Shown: positions 3,727 to 43,248 of the stretch, in pieces | Position numbering within the stretch: the stretch's first letter is position 1 | Layout of the letters: every line of letters starts with the position of its first letter | Assembly: GCA_934129945.1 (NCBI GenBank) | Contig: CAKOXC010000002.1 | Location: forward strand, 53,747-117,746 | Direction of reading: 5' to 3' | DNA: 64,000 nt | Origin: an uncultured Bacilli bacterium | Lineage (GTDB): Bacteria; Bacillota_I; Bacilli_A; RF39; UBA660 | The notes under the pieces: generated by a model | Databases searched by the model: none | Told to the model about the DNA's origin: nothing | The model's input: only the letters and a program-made list of their open reading frames with translations | Program-made: the position numbers and the translations under genes

Positions 3727-5496
3727 CTACTTTTTATTTATATTATTTAAATATTCTTTTAAATTATCAGCAATATTTTTAGGAATTATTTTTTCTAATT
3801 CTTCAGTCGGAGCCTCTTTCATCTTAGCAACACTACCAAATTTTTTAATAAGTTCTTTCTTTCTTTTTTCGCCAATTCCATCTATATTATCTAAAACTGA
3901 TGAAATACTACCTTTACTTCTTATTTGACGGTGATAATTTATTGTAAATCTATGAACTTCATCTTGCATTCTAGTTAAATAATGGAAAACATTAGATGTT
4001 TTTACAAGTGGTATTTCTTCTAAAGTATCTCCATCAATTAAATCATTAGTCATATGCTTATCATTTTTTCTTAATCCACAAATTTTAATATCAAGATTTA
4101 ACATTTGCATTATTTCTTTACAAGCATTAATTTGATTAATTCCACCATCAACGATAATTAAATCAGGCTTTTCTAAATGTTCTAAAAGCATACGATAATA
4201 TCTTCTATAAAGTACTTCTTTCATGGTATTATAATCATCATTTTTATCAATACTTATTTTAAATTTACGATATTCTTTTTTTGCAGGAACGCCATTTTTA
4301 AAGACAACCATTGCACTTACAGAAAAATCACCAAATAAGTTAGAGTTATCAAATAAATCAATCCTATTTAAATGTTTGAGATTTAATAATTCTCTTAATT
4401 CTTCATTTGCTTTTTCAGTTCTTTCTTCGTCTTTTTCAATTAAAGTCATTTCATTATCTAAATTTATTTTTGCATTCATAAATGCCATATCAAGAAGTTC
4501 TTTCTTTTTACCTTTTAATGGTGTTGTAAATGTCGTATTTAACATGTTAGAAAGTAATTCTTTATCACATAATTCGTCTAAAAAGATTTCTTTAGGTATT
4601 TCATGACGTGAATAAAACTTTATTAAATACTCCTCTATTTCTTCTTTTAATTCACCTACAATTGGAAAAATGTCATTATGCCCTCCAACTAATTTACCAT
4701 TGCGGATAAAAAAGATTTGAGCACTAACATAGCCATTATTTAAATAGTAACCAAATATATCTCTATTAATTAAGTCATGTAATTCTACTTTTTGTTTTGT
4801 TAGAACAATTTCAACATAATCTAAATCTTTTTTTAATTCTAAGGCCATTTCAAAATTTAAATTTTCACTACATTCTTCAATTTTTTTTAAAAGTCTATTC
4901 TTTAATACATTTTCATTTCCATTTAGAAAAGATAATATTTCTTTTTCCATTTCTTCTAATTTACTATGGTCATAGTTTTTAGTGCAATAACCTAAACATT
5001 GTCCAATGTGATAATATAAGCATACTTCTTTTGGCATTGAATCACATTTTTTTAATGGATATATTCTATTTAATAAATTAACTATTTTTCGAGCAGCATA
5101 AGCATTGGGATACGGACCAAATAATTTTTTATTTTCACTTTTCTTAATATTAGTATATCTTGAAACTTTTAATTTTGGATAAGGATTTTTAATGTATTCT
5201 ATATAAGGATATGTTTTATCATCTTTAAGTAAAATATTATATTTTGGATCATACTTTTTAATTAGATTAATTTCTATAATAAAAGCTTCTAGTTCACTAC
5301 TGGCAACTATATAAGTAAAATCAGCTATTTCACTTATCATTTTAGCTGTTTTGCCAGTATGGGTTCCACGAAAATATGAAGATAATCTTTTCTTTAAGTC
5401 TTTTGCTTTACCCACATAAATTATAACACCATCAGAATTCTTCATTTGATAAGATCCTGGTTTATGAGGAACTAAACTAAGTTTTTCTTTAAACAT
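3727..5496 (-). CDS. uvrC: excinuclease ABC subunit C
   Basis: 589 aa. GIY-YIG N-terminus (SYQMKNSDGVIIYVGKAKDLKKRLSSY), UvrC family length and C-terminal HhH region. Confidence 0.9.
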   Translation of the reverse strand: MFKEKLSLVPHKPGSYQMKNSDGVIIYVGKAKDLKKRLSSYFRGTHTGKTAKMISEIADFTYIVASSELEAFIIEINLIKKYDPKYNILLKDDKTYPYIEYIKNPYPKLKVSRYTNIKKSENKKLFGPYPNAYAARKIVNLLNRIYPLKKCDSMPKEVCLYYHIGQCLGYCTKNYDHSKLEEMEKEILSFLNGNENVLKNRLLKKIEECSENLNFEMALELKKDLDYVEIVLTKQKVELHDLINRDIFGYYLNNGYVSAQIFFIRNGKLVGGHNDIFPIVGELKEEIEEYLIKFYSRHEIPKEIFLDELCDKELLSNMLNTTFTTPLKGKKKELLDMAFMNAKINLDNEMTLIEKDEERTEKANEELRELLNLKHLNRIDLFDNSNLFGDFSVSAMVVFKNGVPAKKEYRKFKISIDKNDDYNTMKEVLYRRYYRMLLEHLEKPDLIIVDGGINQINACKEIMQMLNLDIKICGLRKNDKHMTNDLIDGDTLEEIPLVKTSNVFHYLTRMQDEVHRFTINYHRQIRSKGSISSVLDNIDGIGEKRKKELIKKFGSVAKMKEAPTEELEKIIPKNIADNLKEYLNNINKK

Positions 5497-5500
5497 AATA

Positions 5501-5959
5501 TCACTTTCTTTCAGTAATTATATAATTATATAAAGATTCACATCCTTTATAAATATTAGTAAAACATTCATCAAAATTTCTATAATACCAAGGATCAATA
5601 ATTTCTTTGGTATCTTTTGTATATTCTAGTAATAAATGGACTTTATTATCTTTATCTCTAGCAAATTTTTCTTTTAAACTTTTTAAATTATTATTATCAA
5701 AGCAAATTATATAATCAAATTTTTGATAATCTACATCGGTTATTTGGCGAGCATAATGAGAAAGTATTTCAATATTATTTTTCTCTAAAGTCTTTTGTGT
5801 CATATAATACATAGAATTTCCAATTTCTTCTGTACTAGTTGCACATGAATCAATCATAAAGTTTTTATCTTTATTTAATTTAACAATATGTTCCATAACC
5901 ATTTGCGCCATAGGGCTTCTGCAGATATTACCATAACATACAAATAATATTTTATGCAT
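5501..5959 (-). CDS. low-molecular-weight protein-tyrosine phosphatase
   Basis: P-loop CYGNICRSPMAQ near N-terminus, 152 aa, DPWY motif near C-terminus. Confidence 0.75.
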   Translation of the reverse strand: MHKILFVCYGNICRSPMAQMVMEHIVKLNKDKNFMIDSCATSTEEIGNSMYYMTQKTLEKNNIEILSHYARQITDVDYQKFDYIICFDNNNLKSLKEKFARDKDNKVHLLLEYTKDTKEIIDPWYYRNFDECFTNIYKGCESLYNYIITERK

Positions 5960-6005
5960 TTTAAAATCACCTGATAATATTCTAACACATTTTAAGCTAA
6001 TATTT

Positions 6006-6263
6006 CTATTTTCTTAAAACTCTTTTTTTATCAGGAAAATCACTTCTTTTTTCATTAATATTTAAAGCACAAAACTTAAATTCTGTACCTTTTCTATCCC
6101 ACATACAATATTCATTTATAGAACTATTAAAACATATATGATCAAGTTGAGGGTGAAGATTTAAATCCGTTATATATAATATTTCTTCTGTTTCGAGTAA
6201 ATATTCTCTTTCCTCAATATATTTTAACATGTTTCTTGAATCAATAATTTCTTCTTGTGTCAT
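6006..6263 (-). CDS. hypothetical protein (85 aa)
   Basis: Good SD AAGGAG 7 nt upstream of ATG. No recognisable domain. Confidence 0.4.
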   Translation of the reverse strand: MTQEEIIDSRNMLKYIEEREYLLETEEILYITDLNLHPQLDHICFNSSINEYCMWDRKGTEFKFCALNINEKRSDFPDKKRVLRK

Positions 6264-6350
6264 AAAAAACTCCTTATTACATTTTATGTTTTAATAACTT
6301 TTAGTTTTGTATTTTTATCTTTATATAGTATAATTATTTCGGGTGATATT

Positions 6351-6704
6351 ATGCAACCAGAATATTCTTATACTTATGAAATTAAAAAATCTAAATTTAT
6401 CGGTTTATATTTCAAAGTTAATAATAAAAATGAAATTGATAATATTTTAAATTGTATTTATAAAGAACATAAGAAAGCAAGACATTTTCCCTATGCATAT
6501 AAAATTGATACTTTAATTAAAAAAACTGATGACAAAGAACCAAGTGGTACTGCTGGAACTCCAATCTACAATGTTATAGAAAGAAATAATCTAAATAATT
6601 GTTTGATTATTGTTGTTAGATATTTTGGTGGCATTAAACTTGGTAGTGGTGGTCTTTTAAGAGCTTATTCTAAGACTGCTAATGAATTAATAAAGCCACG
6701 ATAA
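6351..6704 (+). CDS. yigZ: IMPACT/YigZ family protein
   Basis: Motifs IKKSKFIG, EPSGTAGTP, VVRYFGGIKLGSGGLLRAY. Likely true start ATG 6351 (SD GGGTGA) rather than track start 6255. Confidence 0.65.
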   Translation: MQPEYSYTYEIKKSKFIGLYFKVNNKNEIDNILNCIYKEHKKARHFPYAYKIDTLIKKTDDKEPSGTAGTPIYNVIERNNLNNCLIIVVRYFGGIKLGSGGLLRAYSKTANELIKPR

Positions 6705-6726
6705 AACTACCGTGGGCTTTTTTATT
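6694..6726. terminator. intrinsic terminator hairpin between convergent yigZ and trxA
   Basis: CCACG-ataaaactac-CGTGG stem followed by T-run; overlaps yigZ stop. Confidence 0.55.
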
Positions 6727-7018
6727 CTACCATTTTTTTAATTTCTTCTATATCTTTAAAGCCAATTGATTTGTTTACAAGTTCTCCATCTTTAAATACA
6801 ATTAAAGTAGGAATACTCATTACGCCAAATTCTCTAGCTAATTCTGGATGCATATCAGTATTAACTTTTAAGATATCAACAAAATCAACTGTCTCAAGTA
6901 AACTTCCTAGCATTTTACAAGGTCCACACCAATCAGCATAAAAATCTACTAATATTGTTCCTTTACTTGTTAGTTCTTTAAAATCTTCTTTTTCTAAATA
7001 TTTAATCATTTGTTTCAT
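6722..7018 (-). CDS. trxA: thioredoxin
   Basis: 98 aa, active site WCGPCK. Confidence 0.9.
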   Translation of the reverse strand: MKQMIKYLEKEDFKELTSKGTILVDFYADWCGPCKMLGSLLETVDFVDILKVNTDMHPELAREFGVMSIPTLIVFKDGELVNKSIGFKDIEEIKKMVE

Positions 7019-7706
7019 ACCTTTCTATTAGTTTGTTAGAACCCTTAATATTAATTTTACCATTATCAACTAATTTATGTGCATTATCAGTTGTAATTAT
7101 ATCATATTTTAACAATGTATTTAAAGCTTCATAATCTTTATTGCTACTATTATTATCGCCTAAATTTCTAATTTCATTAAAAGCATTATAAGAGTTCTTA
7201 AATCCTGTAGTAAATGGTGTTTTACTTAAAATAATATTAGTATATTTACTATCTTTTAATACTGTACTTGAAAAACTAAATTGAGAAAAAATGAAAAGTA
7301 GTACAAATAAGAATACATATGCTTCTAAAAAACCTACTGCTATTCCAATTAGTTTTGATGGTAAAGTAAGTATTATTGAGTGGTCTACAATTTTACTAAG
7401 GATACCAGTAATTTTTAATATAACACTTAAAAGTACTGATAAAACACCTAATACTATTAAAAAAGCAATTGCTTCATAAATCAAAATATTTATTACCGTT
7501 ATACCATTAAATATGCCCCCAAGTTTAAAAAATGGTAAATACGTATATAAAAATACTGATAAAGGATTTTTCAAATAGTAAGCAATAATTATTATTAATA
7601 TTGTTCCAATTAAAGTTGCAAGTGTTTGAATTGCTCCTCTTTTAAATCCTAATACAGCACCAGCTAATAAAAACAAAATTATTATTACATCTATAACATT
7701 TATCAT
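7002..7706 (-). CDS. cvpA: CvpA-family membrane protein
   Basis: N-terminus MINVIDVIIILFLLAGAVLGFKRGAI typical of CvpA. Multiple TM segments. Confidence 0.55.
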   Translation of the reverse strand: MINVIDVIIILFLLAGAVLGFKRGAIQTLATLIGTILIIIIAYYLKNPLSVFLYTYLPFFKLGGIFNGITVINILIYEAIAFLIVLGVLSVLLSVILKITGILSKIVDHSIILTLPSKLIGIAVGFLEAYVFLFVLLFIFSQFSFSSTVLKDSKYTNIILSKTPFTTGFKNSYNAFNEIRNLGDNNSSNKDYEALNTLLKYDIITTDNAHKLVDNGKINIKGSNKLIERYETND

Positions 7707-7800
7707 ATTATTTCCTACCCTTCTATTTCTTAATTATAATATAAAAATAATGAAAATAAAAGAAATTTATGATAAAATACTCTAAAGGACAAGTGATTAT

Positions 7801-8748
7801 ATGACAATAGTTTTTAAAGTTAGTGAAAATGTACAAAAGAAAATGGAAGAGTTTTATAAAGATTTATATCGAGATAAATTCCCACCATACTCTATTTTTC
7901 AAGCTCAAAGTGCTGATGTAATTATTACTTTATATGAAAGTGGCAAAGTCATGTTTCAAGGAGTTTCAGCTGATATAGAGGCAAATATCTGGAAAGATCA
8001 AGAAAGACACTTAAATAATAGAGATATTGATAAAGAACTTAAAAAGATTGAAGATAAAAAAGAAGAAAAGAAAAAAGAAAATAATTTAAATTTTTATAAT
8101 ATGTCTACTATTGGTAGCGATGAAGTTGGAACTGGAGATTATTTTGGCCCTATTGTTGTAACTGCTACTTATGTAAGCAAGAAAGATGAAATATTTTTAA
8201 GAGATTTGGGTGTCAAAGATTCTAAAGCTCTTACAGATGAAAAAATAATTGAAATTGCTAAAGAATTAATAAAAAAAGTTAATTATAAGACATTTATTCT
8301 AACTAACAAAGATTTTAACGATTATACTAAAAAAGGATATAACATGAATAAGATAAAAGCAATTCTTCATAATAAAGTATTATATTCTATAAAAGAAAAT
8401 CATATGAACGATTATGATAAGATAGTTGTTGACCAATTTGTTTATCCTAAGAAATATTTTGAACATATAAACGAAGCCACTAACAAAGTGACCGATATTT
8501 CCTTCACGCCCCGTGCTGAAAGCAAATGTTTATCAGTTGCTTGCTCTTCTATAATTAGTAGATATATCTTTCTTCATGAAATGGATAAATTATCAAAAGA
8601 ACTTAATATTACTCTACCTAAGGGAGCAAATGATATAGTTGATGATATAGGATTTGAAATTGTTAAAAAATATGGTTTTGATAAGTTATATGAAGTTGCT
8701 AAAATAAATTTTAAAAATACAGAAAAAATTAAAGATAAGATGGAATAA
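7801..8748 (+). CDS. rnhC: ribonuclease HIII
   Basis: 315 aa, N-terminal DUF3378-like region then RNase HII/III catalytic motif DEVGTGDYFGPIVV. Confidence 0.8.
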   Translation: MTIVFKVSENVQKKMEEFYKDLYRDKFPPYSIFQAQSADVIITLYESGKVMFQGVSADIEANIWKDQERHLNNRDIDKELKKIEDKKEEKKKENNLNFYNMSTIGSDEVGTGDYFGPIVVTATYVSKKDEIFLRDLGVKDSKALTDEKIIEIAKELIKKVNYKTFILTNKDFNDYTKKGYNMNKIKAILHNKVLYSIKENHMNDYDKIVVDQFVYPKKYFEHINEATNKVTDISFTPRAESKCLSVACSSIISRYIFLHEMDKLSKELNITLPKGANDIVDDIGFEIVKKYGFDKLYEVAKINFKNTEKIKDKME

Positions 8749-8762
8749 TATTTTCCATCTTT

Positions 8763-9704
8763 TTAATTAAACATCTTTAATAAATAAGTTTTAAATAGTG
8801 TAATTTTATCAAAGTATATTGATTTCATTTGAATATCACATTCATTTAGATTTAAAATGTTATTTTCAAGTTCATCATAAGTATATTTAAAACTATTTTT
8901 TAGCATTTTTTCCACTTGCCAATTCTGCAATTTCAATTCACGAGAAATACTCATTAAATCTCTTTTATCATCATATAAAGTTTTTGTGCAATATAATAAA
9001 CGATATTCACGTGCAAGAAGAATTACCAAAGAAATTGGTTCTACTTTCAGAAGGGATAAATCATCAAGTAATTTAAAAGCTTTTTCTAAATCATTATTTA
9101 TAACCGCTTCTATAAATTTAAAATTATTATCATCAATATTATTAGAAATAATTTTTTTTACATCATTAAATGATATTTTACAAGGATTATCATAATATAA
9201 TTTTAACTTTTCTAGTTCATTATATATTAAATCATAATTATTTAAACAATTATTTATTATATAATTTATACTATCACTTTCAATCGAAAAGCCATCGCTT
9301 TTTAAATTATTTCTAATTTTGTTAGCCAAATCGTTAAAACTTAGTTTTGGAATTTCAATATACGAATATTTTTCTTTAATTAACTTAGTTACTTTTTTTC
9401 TTGTATCACATTTATCATTATAAGTAAAAATTAATATAGTATTTTCATTAGGACTCTCTAAATATTTTAATAATAGTTCTGTCTTTTTTTCTGCAATCTT
9501 ACCACTTCCAAAGATATTTGCATTTTTAACTACTATTACTCTTTTATCATTGAACATAGAAACATATTGAGCTTCAATTAAAATATCTTCTAACTCTACA
9601 TTATTCAAATCAAAAGTTTCAATGTTTGCCTCTTTTTTTAATATTTTTTTTAATTCTTCATCTATTAATTTAATACTATCACTTGTAATCAAATATATAT
9701 TCAT
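8763..9704 (-). CDS. holA: DNA polymerase III delta subunit
   Basis: 313 aa. Position downstream of comE operon mirrors Bacillus comEA-comEC-holA. Delta-subunit-like fold inferred from size and context only. Confidence 0.55.
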   Translation of the reverse strand: MNIYLITSDSIKLIDEELKKILKKEANIETFDLNNVELEDILIEAQYVSMFNDKRVIVVKNANIFGSGKIAEKKTELLLKYLESPNENTILIFTYNDKCDTRKKVTKLIKEKYSYIEIPKLSFNDLANKIRNNLKSDGFSIESDSINYIINNCLNNYDLIYNELEKLKLYYDNPCKISFNDVKKIISNNIDDNNFKFIEAVINNDLEKAFKLLDDLSLLKVEPISLVILLAREYRLLYCTKTLYDDKRDLMSISRELKLQNWQVEKMLKNSFKYTYDELENNILNLNECDIQMKSIYFDKITLFKTYLLKMFN

Positions 9705-11559: not shown

Positions 11560-13596
11560 CTATGGACTACAAGTCTCAATTTTTAATTTATTATTTTTAA
11601 TTTTAAACATAATACTACCATTTTTATCTGTTCTATATATTTTTGAATCCTGTAATGTATCTAAAACTTCTTTATTCGGATGGCCATACCCATTATTCTT
11701 TCCAACACTGATTATGGAATATTTAGGATTTATATAATCAATAAATTCTTTTCCACTGCTTGTCTTAGAACCATGGTGTCCAATTTTTAATACATCGATA
11801 TCAGATAAATCATAATTATTTATTATATCCTTTTCTCTTGCTATTCCAGCATCTCCCATAAATAAAAATTTATAATTATTTAACTTTGTATAAATAACAT
11901 TGCTATTATTATTTTCATTATCATATTCTTTTGTATTTAAAAAATATAATTTACTATTATTAATATCTAAATTCTGAATACAAGAAGAATATTTAATATT
12001 ATTTTTATCTAATAAATTCATCAAATTTATTTCTAAATCATTATAAGATCCACAATTAAATACCACTTGTTCTACTTTAAAGTCACTAACTAAATTGACT
12101 GCTTCTCCCATATGATCGTAGTCTCCATGAGTAATTATTAATTTTGTAATTTTAGTAATACCAAAACTTTTTAAAAATGTAATTAATTGCTCTGAATCTT
12201 TATATTCTTTTGTTTTTTCTTGCCAGGATTCTTTTTGATAGGTAGTTTTACCACCTGTATCAATCATTACTACGTCTTTGTGTTTTGGACTTATAATTAC
12301 TTCACAATCACCTTGACCTGCATCTAAATAATAAATATAATAGTTGCTATTAAATAAATAACTAAATTTAGTTATTACTACTAAGACTGGTAAAAATAGC
12401 AATAATTTTTTGTTCTTTGTTTTTATAAATAAAATCAGGAAAACATAATATATTAAAATTATAATTAAATTCATTTTACCAGTAGTTATTATAAAAGCTA
12501 ATTTTTCTAATAAAAAATTACTGTATTCTAGTATTACTATTAAGATATGTAAAATACTATCTAAAAATGGAAAAATAAAAGAAAGTAATAAAAATGGGTA
12601 AAGAATATATGAAACAAATGGTACTATTAAAATATTAATAAATATTGAGATTAAATTAAATTCAAAATTATTGTAAAGAGTTATTGGTAAAGACAATAAA
12701 AAAGCAAATATTGAAAGACTTATAATACATTTTGGTTTAATTAAAAATAAACCAAGTGTTATTATAAATGAATATTGGAATCCAACATCTAATATTAAAA
12801 ATGGATTTATTAAAATTAAAATAAAGGCTGTATAAAAAAGTAATTTTGAATTATTAAAATCTTTGAATAAATTTATATTTTTTAAAGTATAAAATATAGT
12901 AACTCTTAAAACAGAAGACGTAAACATTACTAAAAAACTATAAATATATAAAAATATTACGATGAATTTATTATTGAACTTTAATTTATTAAATATAAGA
13001 ATAAGCATGCTTATATGCATGCCTGAAATAGCAAATAAATGGGTTATTCCATTGGTTTTATATAAATTGTATACATTACTCTCTAAAAGGCTTTTATCAC
13101 CTAGGATAAAGGTATAAAAATATTTAGAATCCTTTCTATTATCAATCATTTTTATGATAAAATTCTTTAATTTATAAAAAATATTATTCTTTTTAATTAT
13201 TTTAACTGTCTTTGTATTCATGATAAGATTTATATTTTTAGATTTTAAATATTTTTTATAATTAAAGTTATTAGTAATAGTATTATTAACTGGTTCATTA
13301 ACTGAACCAGTAGTTTTTATAGTATATCCTAACTCAAGATTATTCTCTAAATACTTTTTTTCACTTTCTGTTTTTATATAGTAATTTGCTATTATTTTTT
13401 GTTTATTCTTTAACTGCATTGAAAGTTTATCACCATCTATTTTATAAGCTACTAAAACACCATTAAATTTATCTATATTTAAATTAGAATTTTTTATATT
13501 AAAATTTAGTATAATATAAACAGATAACATTATAAATAAAATAATTAATGTAATATTAGATTGTAATATTTGATTTAATTTTTTCAAACAATGCAT
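11560..13596 (-). CDS. comEC: DNA internalization competence protein ComEC/Rec2
   Basis: 678 aa. N-terminal polytopic membrane region plus C-terminal metallo-beta-lactamase motif (ITHGDYDHMGEA). Overlaps comEA. Confidence 0.85.
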   Translation of the reverse strand: MHCLKKLNQILQSNITLIILFIMLSVYIILNFNIKNSNLNIDKFNGVLVAYKIDGDKLSMQLKNKQKIIANYYIKTESEKKYLENNLELGYTIKTTGSVNEPVNNTITNNFNYKKYLKSKNINLIMNTKTVKIIKKNNIFYKLKNFIIKMIDNRKDSKYFYTFILGDKSLLESNVYNLYKTNGITHLFAISGMHISMLILIFNKLKFNNKFIVIFLYIYSFLVMFTSSVLRVTIFYTLKNINLFKDFNNSKLLFYTAFILILINPFLILDVGFQYSFIITLGLFLIKPKCIISLSIFAFLLSLPITLYNNFEFNLISIFINILIVPFVSYILYPFLLLSFIFPFLDSILHILIVILEYSNFLLEKLAFIITTGKMNLIIILIYYVFLILFIKTKNKKLLLFLPVLVVITKFSYLFNSNYYIYYLDAGQGDCEVIISPKHKDVVMIDTGGKTTYQKESWQEKTKEYKDSEQLITFLKSFGITKITKLIITHGDYDHMGEAVNLVSDFKVEQVVFNCGSYNDLEINLMNLLDKNNIKYSSCIQNLDINNSKLYFLNTKEYDNENNNSNVIYTKLNNYKFLFMGDAGIAREKDIINNYDLSDIDVLKIGHHGSKTSSGKEFIDYINPKYSIISVGKNNGYGHPNKEVLDTLQDSKIYRTDKNGSIMFKIKNNKLKIETCSP

Positions 13597-22506: not shown

Positions 22507-22795
22507 TTTATCACTACTCTCTATTTAATTCTCTTTTTCTATTCTAAAATAAAAACCAGTAAAAAATCAAGTTTTTCACTAGCTTTTTATTCTTTTTATT
22601 CTCATACCCTAGTAAAAGTATATCAAATTTTTAACTTTTTTTCAAATTTAATTAATGCCATAATTAATTTTCCCTGAAAATTTTAAAATTAAAATTTTTA
22701 GGATTTTCTTCCACTTTTTCCATCCCTTGCTTTAAAAAAAAGAGCGAGGAGTGTTCTTAAAAGCAAAAGGGTTAAATTTGAATCAAAGATTCAAA

Positions 22796-24694
22796 TTACT
22801 TTGTAAGAACTAGGCGAAGTCCAATGCCACCATCGGCACCACCAGTGTGATGAATGAAGGAGAACTGACCCGCAAGTACACCATTGCCGTAACGGCCGCC
22901 TCGATGGAACCAAGAGTACGAAGAATTGGCAAAGTAAGAATTGTCAGCATACCAACCATTGTGTGGGCGATTATTACTATCTGCATCTTGATAATAATAA
23001 AATGGTCCCATCTCTCCTGTTGCATCTCCTAAGATTCTCTTACTATATGTTGTCCAATCACTATTTGCATCATATTCATCATAATATTTAGAATTGTATG
23101 ATTTTAATGATGAACTATCAAATCCTGAATCCTTATACGTTTCACTTCTAAGTGATGCCATATACTCCAAAGCTCCACCGCTCATATCATATATTCCTGT
23201 TATATTTCCTGTTGTACTTGCTTTATATCCTGTACTTGTATTATATGGTAAAGTTACACTTGCATCTGTTCCATAGGTTCCGGGGACTTTGGTTTGATCA
23301 GCACTATCTGTTGCTGCATATCCTGTTATGTAATTTGAATTATTATTTATTCTAACTTCAGTATTTATTCCATATTTTGAATGAGATAGATATGCTACTG
23401 CTCCCCATTCTGTATTTTTCATCATATGTGAGTCATTATCTCTTTTATAATTATATGCTGTTTCAAACATTGTTTTTACATTTATATTTCTTAATGATGT
23501 TTGATTTGGTTTTACTGTTATATTTGCTGTACTTCCGGTTGTTTCAAATTTTGCTACCCATAATCCATTTGTATTCATTGAAATAAATGCAGGTGAAGTC
23601 ATATAATCTCCAACCTTACAATTACCACTTGCTCCACTTGTCATTGGTGTTGTACATTCTCCATTATTTGAATCATTTGTATTTGTTGTGCCAAATTTTA
23701 TTTGAATTTCTTTTGCATTACTTGTCGTTGGCTTACTAGATGTATACCCATCAGTTTCACCTAAATTAAATATTTGATATGAATATTTTGGTATCCATAC
23801 AAAGTATGATTCAATATTATCTTCTGGTATTGTATCCCCATTATTATATATTTTAGAACTATCTGCTAAAATAACTGCATTGGCCCATTTCTTATCTTCA
23901 TATTTATACCACTCTATATTAGTATCTGCCTTTGTTACTGTTCCATCATCAGCTATTGCTACTGGTATTAAATTATCACTTAATACTGGATCTGTTCCAT
24001 TAAGTAATGCTTCTTTGTATTCAGCTTTAACGCTAGAATCAGTACTACTTGTTACTATTACTTTACCAGTAAATGATTTACCCATAGTTGATAAATCTTC
24101 AACACTTTCATCCATCCAAACATATAGTTTATATGTCTTTGACTGTCCTTTTGATACTACAGAACTATTATCACTATTCATAGTAGCTTTTGTTAGACTT
24201 CCACTAGTTAATATATATGAATTTAATATATTGTAAGTATTATTATTTTCATCAGTATAAGTATAATTATTATATTCATCATATTTTTTTGTACTTCCTA
24301 TTATCTTAGGACCTACTGTGTTGCCTTTTTCGTCAACCAGTTTGTAATCAAGATAATTATCTAAATCACTACTTCCAGTAGTGTTTAATGTTACATTATA
24401 ATACATATCAATTGAACAATTATTAGTTATTGTAAAAGTATATGGGGTATTTTTCATTGCATCAGTTTCGCTCATCGGATAAGTATTTGTTAAATTAATT
24501 GGATTTTCATCAGTTAATTCAAAAGAAAAACATCCACTTTTTATTTTATTAGTTGATTTTTGAGCATAATTTTTTTGCCAATATGCATAAGATACACCTG
24601 TAAATATTACCATAATAAATATAAATGCTAAAACTCCGATTAATGTTATTGGTAATATATTATCTTTATTAAATTTTAAATTTATTTTTTTCAT
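22796..24694 (-). CDS. Ser/Thr/Asn-rich membrane-anchored surface protein with C-terminal FGE-sulfatase (SUMF1/DUF323)-like domain
   Basis: N-terminal TM (ILPITLIGVLAFIFIMVIF). C-terminal motifs GIYDMSGGALEYMAS, HRGGRYGNGVLAGQF, GIGLRLVL resemble the FGE fold (DMxGNVWEW, RGGSW, GFRC). Start is one of three consecutive ATGs at 24694-24700 after SD AGAAGG. The 3' ~250 nt are strikingly GC-rich. Confidence 0.5.
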   Translation of the reverse strand: MKKINLKFNKDNILPITLIGVLAFIFIMVIFTGVSYAYWQKNYAQKSTNKIKSGCFSFELTDENPINLTNTYPMSETDAMKNTPYTFTITNNCSIDMYYNVTLNTTGSSDLDNYLDYKLVDEKGNTVGPKIIGSTKKYDEYNNYTYTDENNNTYNILNSYILTSGSLTKATMNSDNSSVVSKGQSKTYKLYVWMDESVEDLSTMGKSFTGKVIVTSSTDSSVKAEYKEALLNGTDPVLSDNLIPVAIADDGTVTKADTNIEWYKYEDKKWANAVILADSSKIYNNGDTIPEDNIESYFVWIPKYSYQIFNLGETDGYTSSKPTTSNAKEIQIKFGTTNTNDSNNGECTTPMTSGASGNCKVGDYMTSPAFISMNTNGLWVAKFETTGSTANITVKPNQTSLRNINVKTMFETAYNYKRDNDSHMMKNTEWGAVAYLSHSKYGINTEVRINNNSNYITGYAATDSADQTKVPGTYGTDASVTLPYNTSTGYKASTTGNITGIYDMSGGALEYMASLRSETYKDSGFDSSSLKSYNSKYYDEYDANSDWTTYSKRILGDATGEMGPFYYYQDADSNNRPHNGWYADNSYFANSSYSWFHRGGRYGNGVLAGQFSFIHHTGGADGGIGLRLVLTK

Positions 24695-24799
24695 CATCAT
24701 ACCTTCTACTCTATAAATTATTATACTAAATAAGGAATAGTAATTCAACTGAAAAACTATTTTAAATTACTAGAAATTGTTATATTTTCACCATTAAAT

Positions 24800-24846
24800 A
24801 CCGTATAATGGTATTTGCTGGTGAAAATCAATAAAAAACTCTATCA
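24800..24846. repeat. near-perfect 19-bp inverted repeat TTTTCACCA(TT)AAATACC-tataa-GGTATTT(GC)TGGTGAAAA
   Basis: Read directly; no adjacent T-run, so more operator-like than terminator-like. Confidence 0.5.
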
Positions 24847-24878
24847 GTTAAGATAAAGTTTTCAGGCATTTTCAACCG

Positions 24879-24972
24879 AGATTACTTATAACTCGCACCA
24901 CTCGGAAGCGACTAACATTTCGCGATTGGAATCACTTATAACCCGCACCATCCATAAGCGGCTAACATGTTC
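24879..24972 (+). repeat. two tandem ~44-nt relatively GC-rich direct repeats (about 85% identical) separated by 7 nt
   Basis: R1 GATTACTTATAACTCGCACCACTCGGAAGCGACTAACATTTCG; R2 AATCACTTATAACCCGCACCATCCATAAGCGGCTAACATGTTCG. The internal 4-bp stem TCGC/GCGA versus CCGC/GCGG shows a compensatory change. Confidence 0.5.
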
Positions 24973-24978
24973 GAATAA

Positions 24979-42155: not shown

Positions 42156-42707
42156 ATGGAATTACCAAAAATTAAAATTTTAGACGAAAAGAATAAAATA
42201 TTGCATCAAAAAAGTGTAGAAGTAAAATTTCCTTTAAGTGCAAAAGAAAAGCAAGATATTAAAGATATGCTTTTATATTTAAAAATGAGTCAAATTGACG
42301 AAGAAAGAGAAAAATATGATTTAAGAGCTGGTATGGGACTTGCCTATGTTCAAATTGGTGTTTTAAAAAGAATATTTGTTATCGTTGATGAATATGAAGA
42401 AGGTAAATTTAAAAATTATGTTGTAATTAACCCAGAAATTAAAAGTATGAGTGAAGAATTAGTTTATGTTGGGGAAGGTGAAGGATGCTTAAGCATTAAT
42501 CGTGATGTTGAAGGCATTGTTCCAAGACATGCTAGAATCACAGTAGATGCTTATGACGAGGATGGAAATCCCTATACTATTCGTGTTAGAGAAGAAATTG
42601 CTATAGCATTCCAACATGAAATGGATCATCTAGATGGCATTTTATTTCCTGATAGAATTGATAAAAAGAATCCTTTTAAAGATGCAGAATTAATGCGTGA
42701 AATATAA
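42156..42707 (+). CDS. def: peptide deformylase
   Basis: Motifs GMGLAYVQIG, EGCLS, HEMDHLDG. Start ATG 42156 after SD GGAGG (track start 42132). Confidence 0.85.
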   Translation: MELPKIKILDEKNKILHQKSVEVKFPLSAKEKQDIKDMLLYLKMSQIDEEREKYDLRAGMGLAYVQIGVLKRIFVIVDEYEEGKFKNYVVINPEIKSMSEELVYVGEGEGCLSINRDVEGIVPRHARITVDAYDEDGNPYTIRVREEIAIAFQHEMDHLDGILFPDRIDKKNPFKDAELMREI

Positions 42708-42735
42708 AAAATATGAGAAAATAATCTCATATTTT

Positions 42736-43248
42736 TTATTTTGCTAAAACTAATCGAAGACCAATGCTGCTGCCAGCACCACCAGTGATATAAATGAAGC
42801 CGAACTGACCTGCAAGCACACCATTGTCGGAAGTGCCGCCTCGACCGAACCAAGGGTAAGAAGAATCGGCAAAGTTAGAATTGTCATCGTACCAATTATT
42901 ATGTATTCTTGTTTTACTATCGGTATCCTGATAGTAATACAAAGGTCCCATTTCTCCTGTTGCATCTCCTAAAATTCTCTTACTATAAGTAGTTTCAGCA
43001 CTTGAACTATTATATTCGTCATAGTATTTTGAATTGTATGCTTTTAATGATGAATTATCAAATTCAGAACTTCCATATGTTTTACTTCGAAGAGATGCCA
43101 TATATTCCCAAGTTCCACCACTCATATCATAAATTCCTGTGATATTTCCTGTTGTACTTGCTTTATATCCTGTGGTTGTATTATATGGTAAAGTTACACT
43201 TGCATCAGATCCAGCTTCTCCAGGGTATTTACTTATTTTTAGAATCAA
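42736..43248 (-). pseudogene. truncated paralog (C-terminal 160 aa) of the FGE-domain surface protein, fused into the 3' end of dtd
   Basis: About 80% nt identity to 22796-23290. Homology begins at PG..G.DASVTLPYN. The ORF's first 8 codons overlap the dtd 3' end in another frame. GC-rich like the parental 3' end. Confidence 0.55.

Follow-up and report, generated by a model that had tools for sequence, protein, structure and literature searches.

Diversity-generating retroelements (DGRs) depend upon a reverse transcriptase (RT) of low fidelity, which rewrites a stretch of a target gene, the variable region (VR), from a template repeat (TR). The element considered here is the 3' end of a surface-protein gene in a 64,000-nucleotide stretch of DNA from an uncultured Bacilli bacterium (contig CAKOXC010000002.1, positions 53,747 to 117,746), hereafter called the window; features in the window lie on the minus strand unless noted. 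DGR diversification makes use of AAY codons (PMC6328139). GC-rich flanks of the mutagenised part of TR and VR, remote targets, MutS-like accessory genes and targets of the FGE-sulfatase type (FGE, formylglycine-generating enzyme) have all been described for DGRs (PMC5758913). Remote targets are known from Treponema, and for chromosomal DGRs they can be found more than 100 kb from the RT (PMC5758913); large surveys requiring a VR adjacent to the RT state that such remote targets are missed (PMC8144416). The GC-rich 3' end of the window gene is interpreted, with a probability of roughly 0.88, as the VR of a DGR target, placed at the C-terminus of the FGE-type C-type-lectin (CLec) domain of the surface protein. 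This interpretation, which the original prediction did not consider, explains together the composition, the adenine depletion, the extreme C-terminal position and the fold.

The target gene (22796..24694) encodes 632 residues plus the stop codon, and the VR (22799..22951, residues 582-632) includes an invariant 3' end, a putative initiation of mutagenic homing (IMH) element. The variability of the gene is concentrated in this section. In an alignment of 36 orthologues, 76-100% identical to the window protein, the column entropy reaches 0.98-1.28 bits in residues 571-630, against 0.02-0.58 bits per 30-residue block elsewhere. About 15 discrete columns are variable (585, 587, 590, 593, 597, 601, 603, 604, 612, 614-616 and 621-623), each with up to 13 different residues, and they are set in a conserved frame (..PWF.RGG.Y..GVLAGQF.F...TGGA...IGLRLVLTK). 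With few exceptions, these columns draw on the AAY-derived set of N, S, T, Y, H, D, G, A, R, C, F, I, L, V and P, i.e., on amino acids that an AAY codon can yield through changes at its two adenines. Lys, Glu, Gln, Met and Trp appear just once in eleven core columns of the 36 orthologues (a Glu, in 396 cells); in nine core columns of 148 distinct tails, they account for 2.9%, compared with a background of 18%. Hypervariability is confined to codon positions that contain adenine, mostly AAY, as in DGR targets.

The same pattern is visible in the DNA. Six VRs of the window lineage were compared: the two copies of the window, the orthologue of contig L001 and the paralogues of L126, L127 and L130 (at 11492). 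All six have the same bases at the synonymous sites of the scaffold codons, even where overall protein identity is as low as about 65%. Over 152 VR columns, A is found in 7 of the 93 invariant ones, against 105 of 238 in the upstream part (395 columns), and 40 of the 59 variable VR columns contain A. Shared synonymous bases combined with A-poor invariant columns are what repeated copying from one adenine-mutagenised template predicts.

Templates were found by querying a protein database with the VR translation bearing Asn at every hypervariable position. The query returned short open reading frames (ORFs) of 55-101 residues (e.g., ...LYADNSNFVDSTNPWFNRGGNYNNGVLAGQFNFNRNTGGVNTNIGFRLVLAD), each of which reproduces, as a stand-alone copy, precisely residues about 582-630 and has Asn wherever the VR varies. 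On L131, an 18-kb contig of 25.4% GC, a gene of the same family (ending at 1393) is followed by the TR (about 1657-1810), a 136-residue MutS domain I protein (2001-2411; PF01624, E=1.8e-7) located between TR and avd, a bAvd gene (E=2e-20) and a reverse transcriptase of the RVT_1 family (E=3e-14), in which the motifs IGNYTSQ and FMDD are present. The short contigs L132 and L133 display a target 3' end with a TR about 200 nt further on. In these three TR-VR pairs, 46 of 47 mismatches fall at TR adenines: 17/38, 18/35 and 11/28 of the A sites are changed per pair, against 1 of about 310 non-A sites. The TRs have about 50% GC and 25% A in genomes of 25% GC. The cassettes of L131-L133 are canonical DGRs and belong to the avd-plus-MutS-like class of PMC5758913. 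The window VR is homologous to their VRs codon for codon and colinear with their TRs.

A conserved 20-nt motif, AAATGTAGGYTAYAAGTTGT, is located 44-45 nt upstream of all three TRs (L131 1613-1632, L132 557-576, L133 260-279). This motif, absent from the window, may represent a promoter or form the 5' portion of the TR RNA.

Other candidate templates were discarded. The second VR copy of the window, at 42.7 kb, was rejected as a TR, as its differences from the main copy are not A-specific in one direction and its neighbours are dtd, def and nfo, not an RT. A naive reconstruction of the TR of the window lineage from the six VRs gave an in-frame stop, and only the core was predicted, as TGGTTC AAT CGA GGC GGC AAT TAC NAC AAT GGT GTA CTT GCA GGT CAG TTC AAC TTC AAT MAT AAC ACT GGT GGT GC. 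A degenerate fallback pattern matched 120 times by chance in contigs of high-GC genomes (L006-L125) and was uninformative. An RT was also sought beside the paralogues, and none was found; viral contigs yielded neither a match to the VR/TR pattern nor relatives of the protein.

The composition of the gene end is exceptional within the window. The VR has 49% GC and 18% A on the coding strand, compared with 29% and 43%, respectively, for the remainder of the gene. The original prediction had placed the last ~250 nt at about 50% GC in a genome of ~27%; the anomaly is real, but the values have to be corrected to 44.2% for 22800-23050 and 24.6% for the whole window. The GC content reaches 49% in the final 153 nt and 54% in the peak 120-nt segment (22811-22930). 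No other 250-nt stretch of the 64 kb is as rich in GC as 22800-23050 (z about 4.4), and just one comes close, the paralogous copy at about 42.7 kb. Both long ORFs described as spurious products of this island, 22810..23025 (minus strand) and 22847..23032 (plus strand), are indeed in the ORF list, and no RNA gene was detected beneath the island by tRNA and Rfam scans.

The GC excess of the 3' end is a synonymous effect, not an amino-acid effect. GC at third codon positions (GC3) is 0.05-0.20 along the gene and 0.35-0.47 in the last ~50 codons; the codon table of 46 ORFs of the window gives 0.12. In 10-codon bins, GC3 rises from about 0.12 to 0.4-0.6 at codons 581-590, the same point at which the coding-strand adenine fraction drops from about 0.4 to about 0.13. 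When the GC3 of 14,341 stretches of 51 codons, taken from 48 ORFs, was compared (mean 0.117, sd 0.053), the 3' ends of the main gene (0.43) and of the 42.7-kb copy (0.41) came out at the top, with 0.33 as the best value elsewhere. The VR uses CGN and not AGA for Arg, GGC for Gly, TTC for Phe, TAC for Tyr and CTT for Leu, while the host prefers AGA (71%), TTT (94%), TAT (92%) and TTA (65%) for Arg, Phe, Tyr and Leu, respectively. Because GC is high at both the invariant (0.52) and the variable (0.45) columns of the window VR, A-free scaffold codons and randomised AAY adenines would both contribute to it.

The VR terminates a domain of about residues 355-632 (22799..23632), for which an FGE fold had been proposed from motifs. 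The motifs DMSGG, WFHRGG and GLRLV are present in the window protein. Single-sequence Pfam and NCBIfam scans returned only noise for this protein and no FGE-sulfatase match, and the search with the PF03781 profile left it without a match even at E<=10. A profile of 46 diverse relatives matches TaqVP, the variable protein of a Thermus aquaticus prophage DGR (PDB 5VF4), at E=1e-5, and PF03781 is matched by 14 of these 46 (best E=3.7e-5); three relatives scored singly gave 16.8-17.8 bits, under the gathering cut-off of 23.3 bits. AlphaFold models were poor (predicted local distance difference test, pLDDT, of 35, with a shallow alignment) to moderate (pLDDT 52, predicted template modelling score 0.59). 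The proposed fold is supported by profile and structure comparison, but not by a match of the single sequence. The domain is predicted to adopt the FGE-type CLec fold with the VR at the C-terminal ligand-binding face, as in DGR targets, and its best matches are specifically DGR variable proteins; confidence in the model is only moderate (pLDDT 52). In DGR variable proteins with this fold, the catalytic residues of FGE are generally missing (PMC6328139).

The invariant 3' end is common to the window VR and the TRs up to the stop codon. A perfect 10-bp hairpin (AATTTGAATC ttt GATTCAAATT; 22775..22797) starts inside the stop codon, with a minimum free energy of -7.3 kcal/mol (z -2.6), and a 14-bp hairpin (42705..42738; -14.2 kcal/mol, z -7.2) adjoins the stop codon of the second copy. 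As expected of a DGR target, the VR of the window gene ends in an invariant 3' element (putative IMH), and an inverted repeat lies downstream. Perfect hairpins that start at or inside the stop codon were seen in nine of the ten genes with a VR, and all three TRs lack them. In Bordetella and Legionella, an inverted repeat after the IMH promotes homing (PMC5758913). The stop-codon hairpin may correspond to the inverted repeat by which DGR targets are marked, and a role in homing might be ascribed to it. Reading of the sequence of L131-L133 revealed stronger, GC-containing hairpins with T-runs further downstream, so the first hairpin need not be a terminator.

About 25-70 nt past the stop codon of the window gene, a second, imperfect inverted repeat that contains GC is present (22725-22749 on the plus strand, 22735-22775), and it is conserved in L001. 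The terminator scan marks the repeat at 22725-22749 on the plus strand only. This repeat could be the gene's actual terminator, or one that works in both directions.

The following mechanism is proposed from established knowledge of DGRs. A TR located elsewhere in the genome would be transcribed. An Avd-reverse transcriptase complex would copy it into cDNA, with misincorporation opposite the template adenines, and this cDNA would take the place of the 153-bp VR, with the invariant 3' end and probably also the neighbouring hairpin as guides. In its composition, the VR would bear the imprint of the template, whose scaffold residues would be written in adenine-free, largely G/C-ending codons. The about 15 diversified positions would be AAY in the template, and randomisation of their adenines would leave less A in the VR and a GC content of about 49%. 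The window gene would be one of several dispersed targets with a common VR framework, among them the truncated one 20 kb away. Judging by domain architecture and neighbourhood, the protein is likely an adhesin associated with a fibre or pilus, and diversification would alter the surface with which it binds its ligand.

Several observations weigh against a DGR origin of this region. Neither a cognate TR nor a DGR-type RT motif (GNxxSQ) or Avd was found in the 64-kb window, which holds two VR copies only. The predicted TR string had no match among the GTDB representative genomes, and the single match of a TR-specific pattern in a metagenome scan was another, weakly mutated VR (L127) and not a TR. 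The TRs that were found come from related but different organisms and show about 22% non-A mismatches to the window VR. Within the six-VR comparison, 19 of the 59 variable columns are without A, and seven invariant positions are A, including a synonymous one in a CGA codon. Avoidance of A alone does not explain the preference for G/C-ending over T-ending codons. Finally, where two strains share at least 98.5% identity outside the VR, their VRs are identical or differ by one residue; VR identity falls to about 0.6 between strains that are 90-95% identical elsewhere. Since near-clonal strains share their VRs, diversification is either episodic on the timescale of strains or no longer active here.

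The CGA in question is codon 598 (about 22899-22901). Its third-position A, where a change would be silent, is unsubstituted in eight VR copies, including those of L001, L126, L127, L130, L131 and L132.

Some of these points can also be read as the signs of a relic: the VR would have been written by a past DGR whose TR/RT cassette is lost or inactive in this strain, and the GC-rich end would be a decaying fossil. The lack of a TR and an RT in the window and the identical VRs of near-clonal strains agree with such a scenario, as do two paralogues. The paralogue VRs of L128 (about 11966-12121) and L130 (about 4055-4213) use T-rich codons like those of the host and depart from the TRs at many non-A sites, with 42-44 non-A mismatches in 112 positions, compared with 22-30 for the other VRs. 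To judge by these codons, the VRs of L128 and of L130 (at 4094) look decayed, as if they had escaped re-writing by a DGR. Both window VRs, on the contrary, retain the full TR-like codon usage, and a VR identity of about 0.6 between strains diverged by 5-10% argues for homing in the recent history of the species. The distance to an RT is no obstacle, given that targets more than 100 kb away are known for chromosomal DGRs (PMC5758913). A relic is considered rather unlikely, though it is the likeliest of the rival explanations.

The second copy at 42.7 kb raises the possibility of cassette recombination, in which paralogous 3' cassettes would generate the variation by gene conversion with one another, as in pilE/pilS. 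This copy, fragment B (42736..43248), 170 codons long, is a truncated paralogue consisting of the 3' 165 codons of a 535-residue family member, fused to the dtd stop codon with its frame intact. It shares 76% amino acid and 78% nucleotide identity with the main gene and has its own VR (42739..42891; GC3 0.41, the second highest of the window). A promoterless, in-frame 3' fragment of this kind could act as a silent donor, and the region is shared by several dispersed paralogues. However, the variation is limited to adenine/AAY positions with the third codon positions kept: the two copies differ at the same codons as the hypervariable set, and the third position is kept in eight of the ten differing codons. 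Up to 13 residues per column among the 36 orthologues, and templates with Asn at all variable positions that adjoin Avd-RT, are equally at odds with it. Moreover, another strain has at the same locus a full-length 535-residue gene with nearly the same VR (L134 6001-7608), with def, nfo and a penicillin-binding protein gene downstream, which makes fragment B a rearrangement remnant. The upstream genes of the L134 locus differ from those of the window and include an HTH_38 (transposase-like) protein. Recombination among cassettes is therefore given a very low likelihood.

Still less credible is the idea that the FGE-like domain was acquired horizontally from an organism of higher GC content and is not yet ameliorated. 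The local GC excess and the 50% GC of TRs in genomes of 25% GC would fit such a transfer, which corresponds to the foreign origin suggested in the original prediction. Only the last 51 codons of the ~275-residue domain are anomalous, however, and the remainder has host-like GC3, so the whole domain except its TR-homologous part has the composition by which this explanation is refuted. The paralogues show the same sharp boundary, which falls where homology to the DGR template repeats begins. The sliding GC and codon-usage comparison, with its GC3 step at codon about 581, bears out neither this cause nor the other one proposed beside it. That other cause, a Gly/Ala/Arg-rich core forcing GC-rich codons, can practically be dismissed, since the high GC at first and second codon positions (GC12) of the stretch (0.51) cannot lift GC3 four-fold, residues 461-500 combine a GC12 of 0.53 with a normal GC3 of 0.10, and the synonymous codons of the VR run opposite to the host preferences.

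The remainder of the protein is consistent with a surface location. The maximal ORF (22796..24748) encodes 650 residues from a TTG start at 24748, which is the length first reported, whereas 22796-24694 encodes the 632-residue form starting with MKKINLKF; this form is the one held in public protein sets (P0001, identical), where it has more than 4,700 homologues. The N-terminal module (residues 1-223; 24026..24694), which occurs separately in other proteins, is composed of a basic N-terminus, a hydrophobic anchor or signal, a VSYAYW motif and a beta-rich region rich in Ser, Thr, Asn and Tyr. A membrane-anchored or secreted surface-type protein, as the original prediction had it, is supported. 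Pfam scans detected neither the camelysin/TasA-type domain PF12389 nor the prepilin N_methyl motif PF07963 in the window protein. The paralogues P0026 and P0083 match PF12389 (E about 3e-10), and BLASTP aligns the N-terminus of the window protein with P0026 over residues 18-132 (26% identity, E=5e-5), suggesting that its N-terminal module is weakly related to the camelysin/TasA-type N-terminus of the paralogues.

The conserved C-terminal module (about residues 221-632; 22799..24034) was found in 5,131 cluster representatives (E<=1e-3), always at the C-terminus of the protein. It is joined to various N-termini: the type IV prepilin N_methyl motif in 18 of the 46 diverse relatives, the camelysin/TasA type in the paralogues and Ig-like domains in a few. 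Pfam scans of the members gave at most an N-terminal motif or a sub-threshold FGE-sulfatase match, and some relatives are labelled by NCBI as prepilin-type proteins of metagenome-assembled genomes of 'Bacilli bacterium'. Full-text literature searches found no description of the family as a DGR target. This large family is without functional annotation in the libraries searched; the system itself is of a known kind.

The family members sit singly among housekeeping genes. The window gene has ruvB on one side and a gyrB/parE-like gene on the other, and other members adjoin cca, recA-recO or addAB. Between ruvB and the target gene, L001-L005 contain a two-gene insert (e.g., L001 8494-9880), made of a 196-residue ORF and an AbiEii-family protein, which is not present at the corresponding position of the window (24749-24978). 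In L128, a Tad/Flp pilus operon (4679-9503; Flp, TadE, a CbiA-type ATPase, T2SSE and two T2SSF) is located directly upstream of a 706-residue paralogue, a neighbour that hints that some members may be associated with pili. IMG/VR yielded no relatives, and nothing thus suggests that phages carry the family; the elements appear to be chromosomal and to have remote targets.

It is tentatively considered, at somewhat less than even odds, that in this uncultured gut lineage of Bacilli, which is very low in GC, a single chromosomal DGR (Avd, MutS-like protein and RT) serves at least six dispersed surface genes. These would share one C-terminal CLec module and differ in their filament-type N-termini, which are TasA/camelysin-like or type IV prepilin-like, with one gene directly after a Tad/Flp operon; truncated, promoterless 3' fragments would be included among the targets. 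If this is true, it would be among the largest sets of remote targets known, and the undescribed family, with more than 5,000 clusters at 50% identity and mostly without Pfam assignment, would be one of DGR-diversified fibre or pilus adhesins of Gram-positive bacteria. Even with a distant RT, a DGR VR can be recognised in the raw sequence when the genome is AT-rich: it stands out as a short 3'-terminal island in which GC3 is high and adenine is scarce on the coding strand. A very large protein family of human-gut Bacilli is in this way flagged as hypervariable ligand-binding surface proteins, and its members are candidates for strain-specific adhesion or phage/host interactions.

Among the closest described systems, TaqVP is a single-domain prophage protein encoded beside its avd-TR-rt. 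The window protein, by contrast, has 632 residues with an N-terminal anchor and extra modules, and its gene lies in the chromosome among housekeeping genes, with no RT in the 64-kb window. Its VR of 51 codons, about 15 of them diversified, is also larger than that of TaqVP (40 residues, nine variable). Mtd of Bordetella phage BPP-1, the prototype DGR, is a phage tail-fibre protein with a GC-rich inverted repeat, while the inverted repeat of the window gene is AT-rich and may double as a terminator. The MutS-like (MSL) DGRs, e.g., that of Legionella (Wu et al. 2018, PMC5758913), are matched by L131 through the 136-residue MutS_I protein between TR and avd, a likeness seen in this related locus only. 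In Treponema denticola, TvpA (PDB 2Y3C) and the remote targets related to it that its DGR serves belong to another phylum and have other N-termini than the TasA/camelysin-like or prepilin-type ones found here; unlike in that system, multiple targets per TR are here suggested by the shared VR frameworks. According to the preprint on the adhesins of Bacteroides type V pili (bioRxiv 10.1101/2024.11.15.621889), gut bacteria likewise use chromosomal DGRs to vary the adhesive tips of surface filaments. The filament systems described there differ from those of the present family, in which 18 of 46 relatives have N_methyl and others are of the TasA/camelysin type, and the window protein itself might be associated with a filament.

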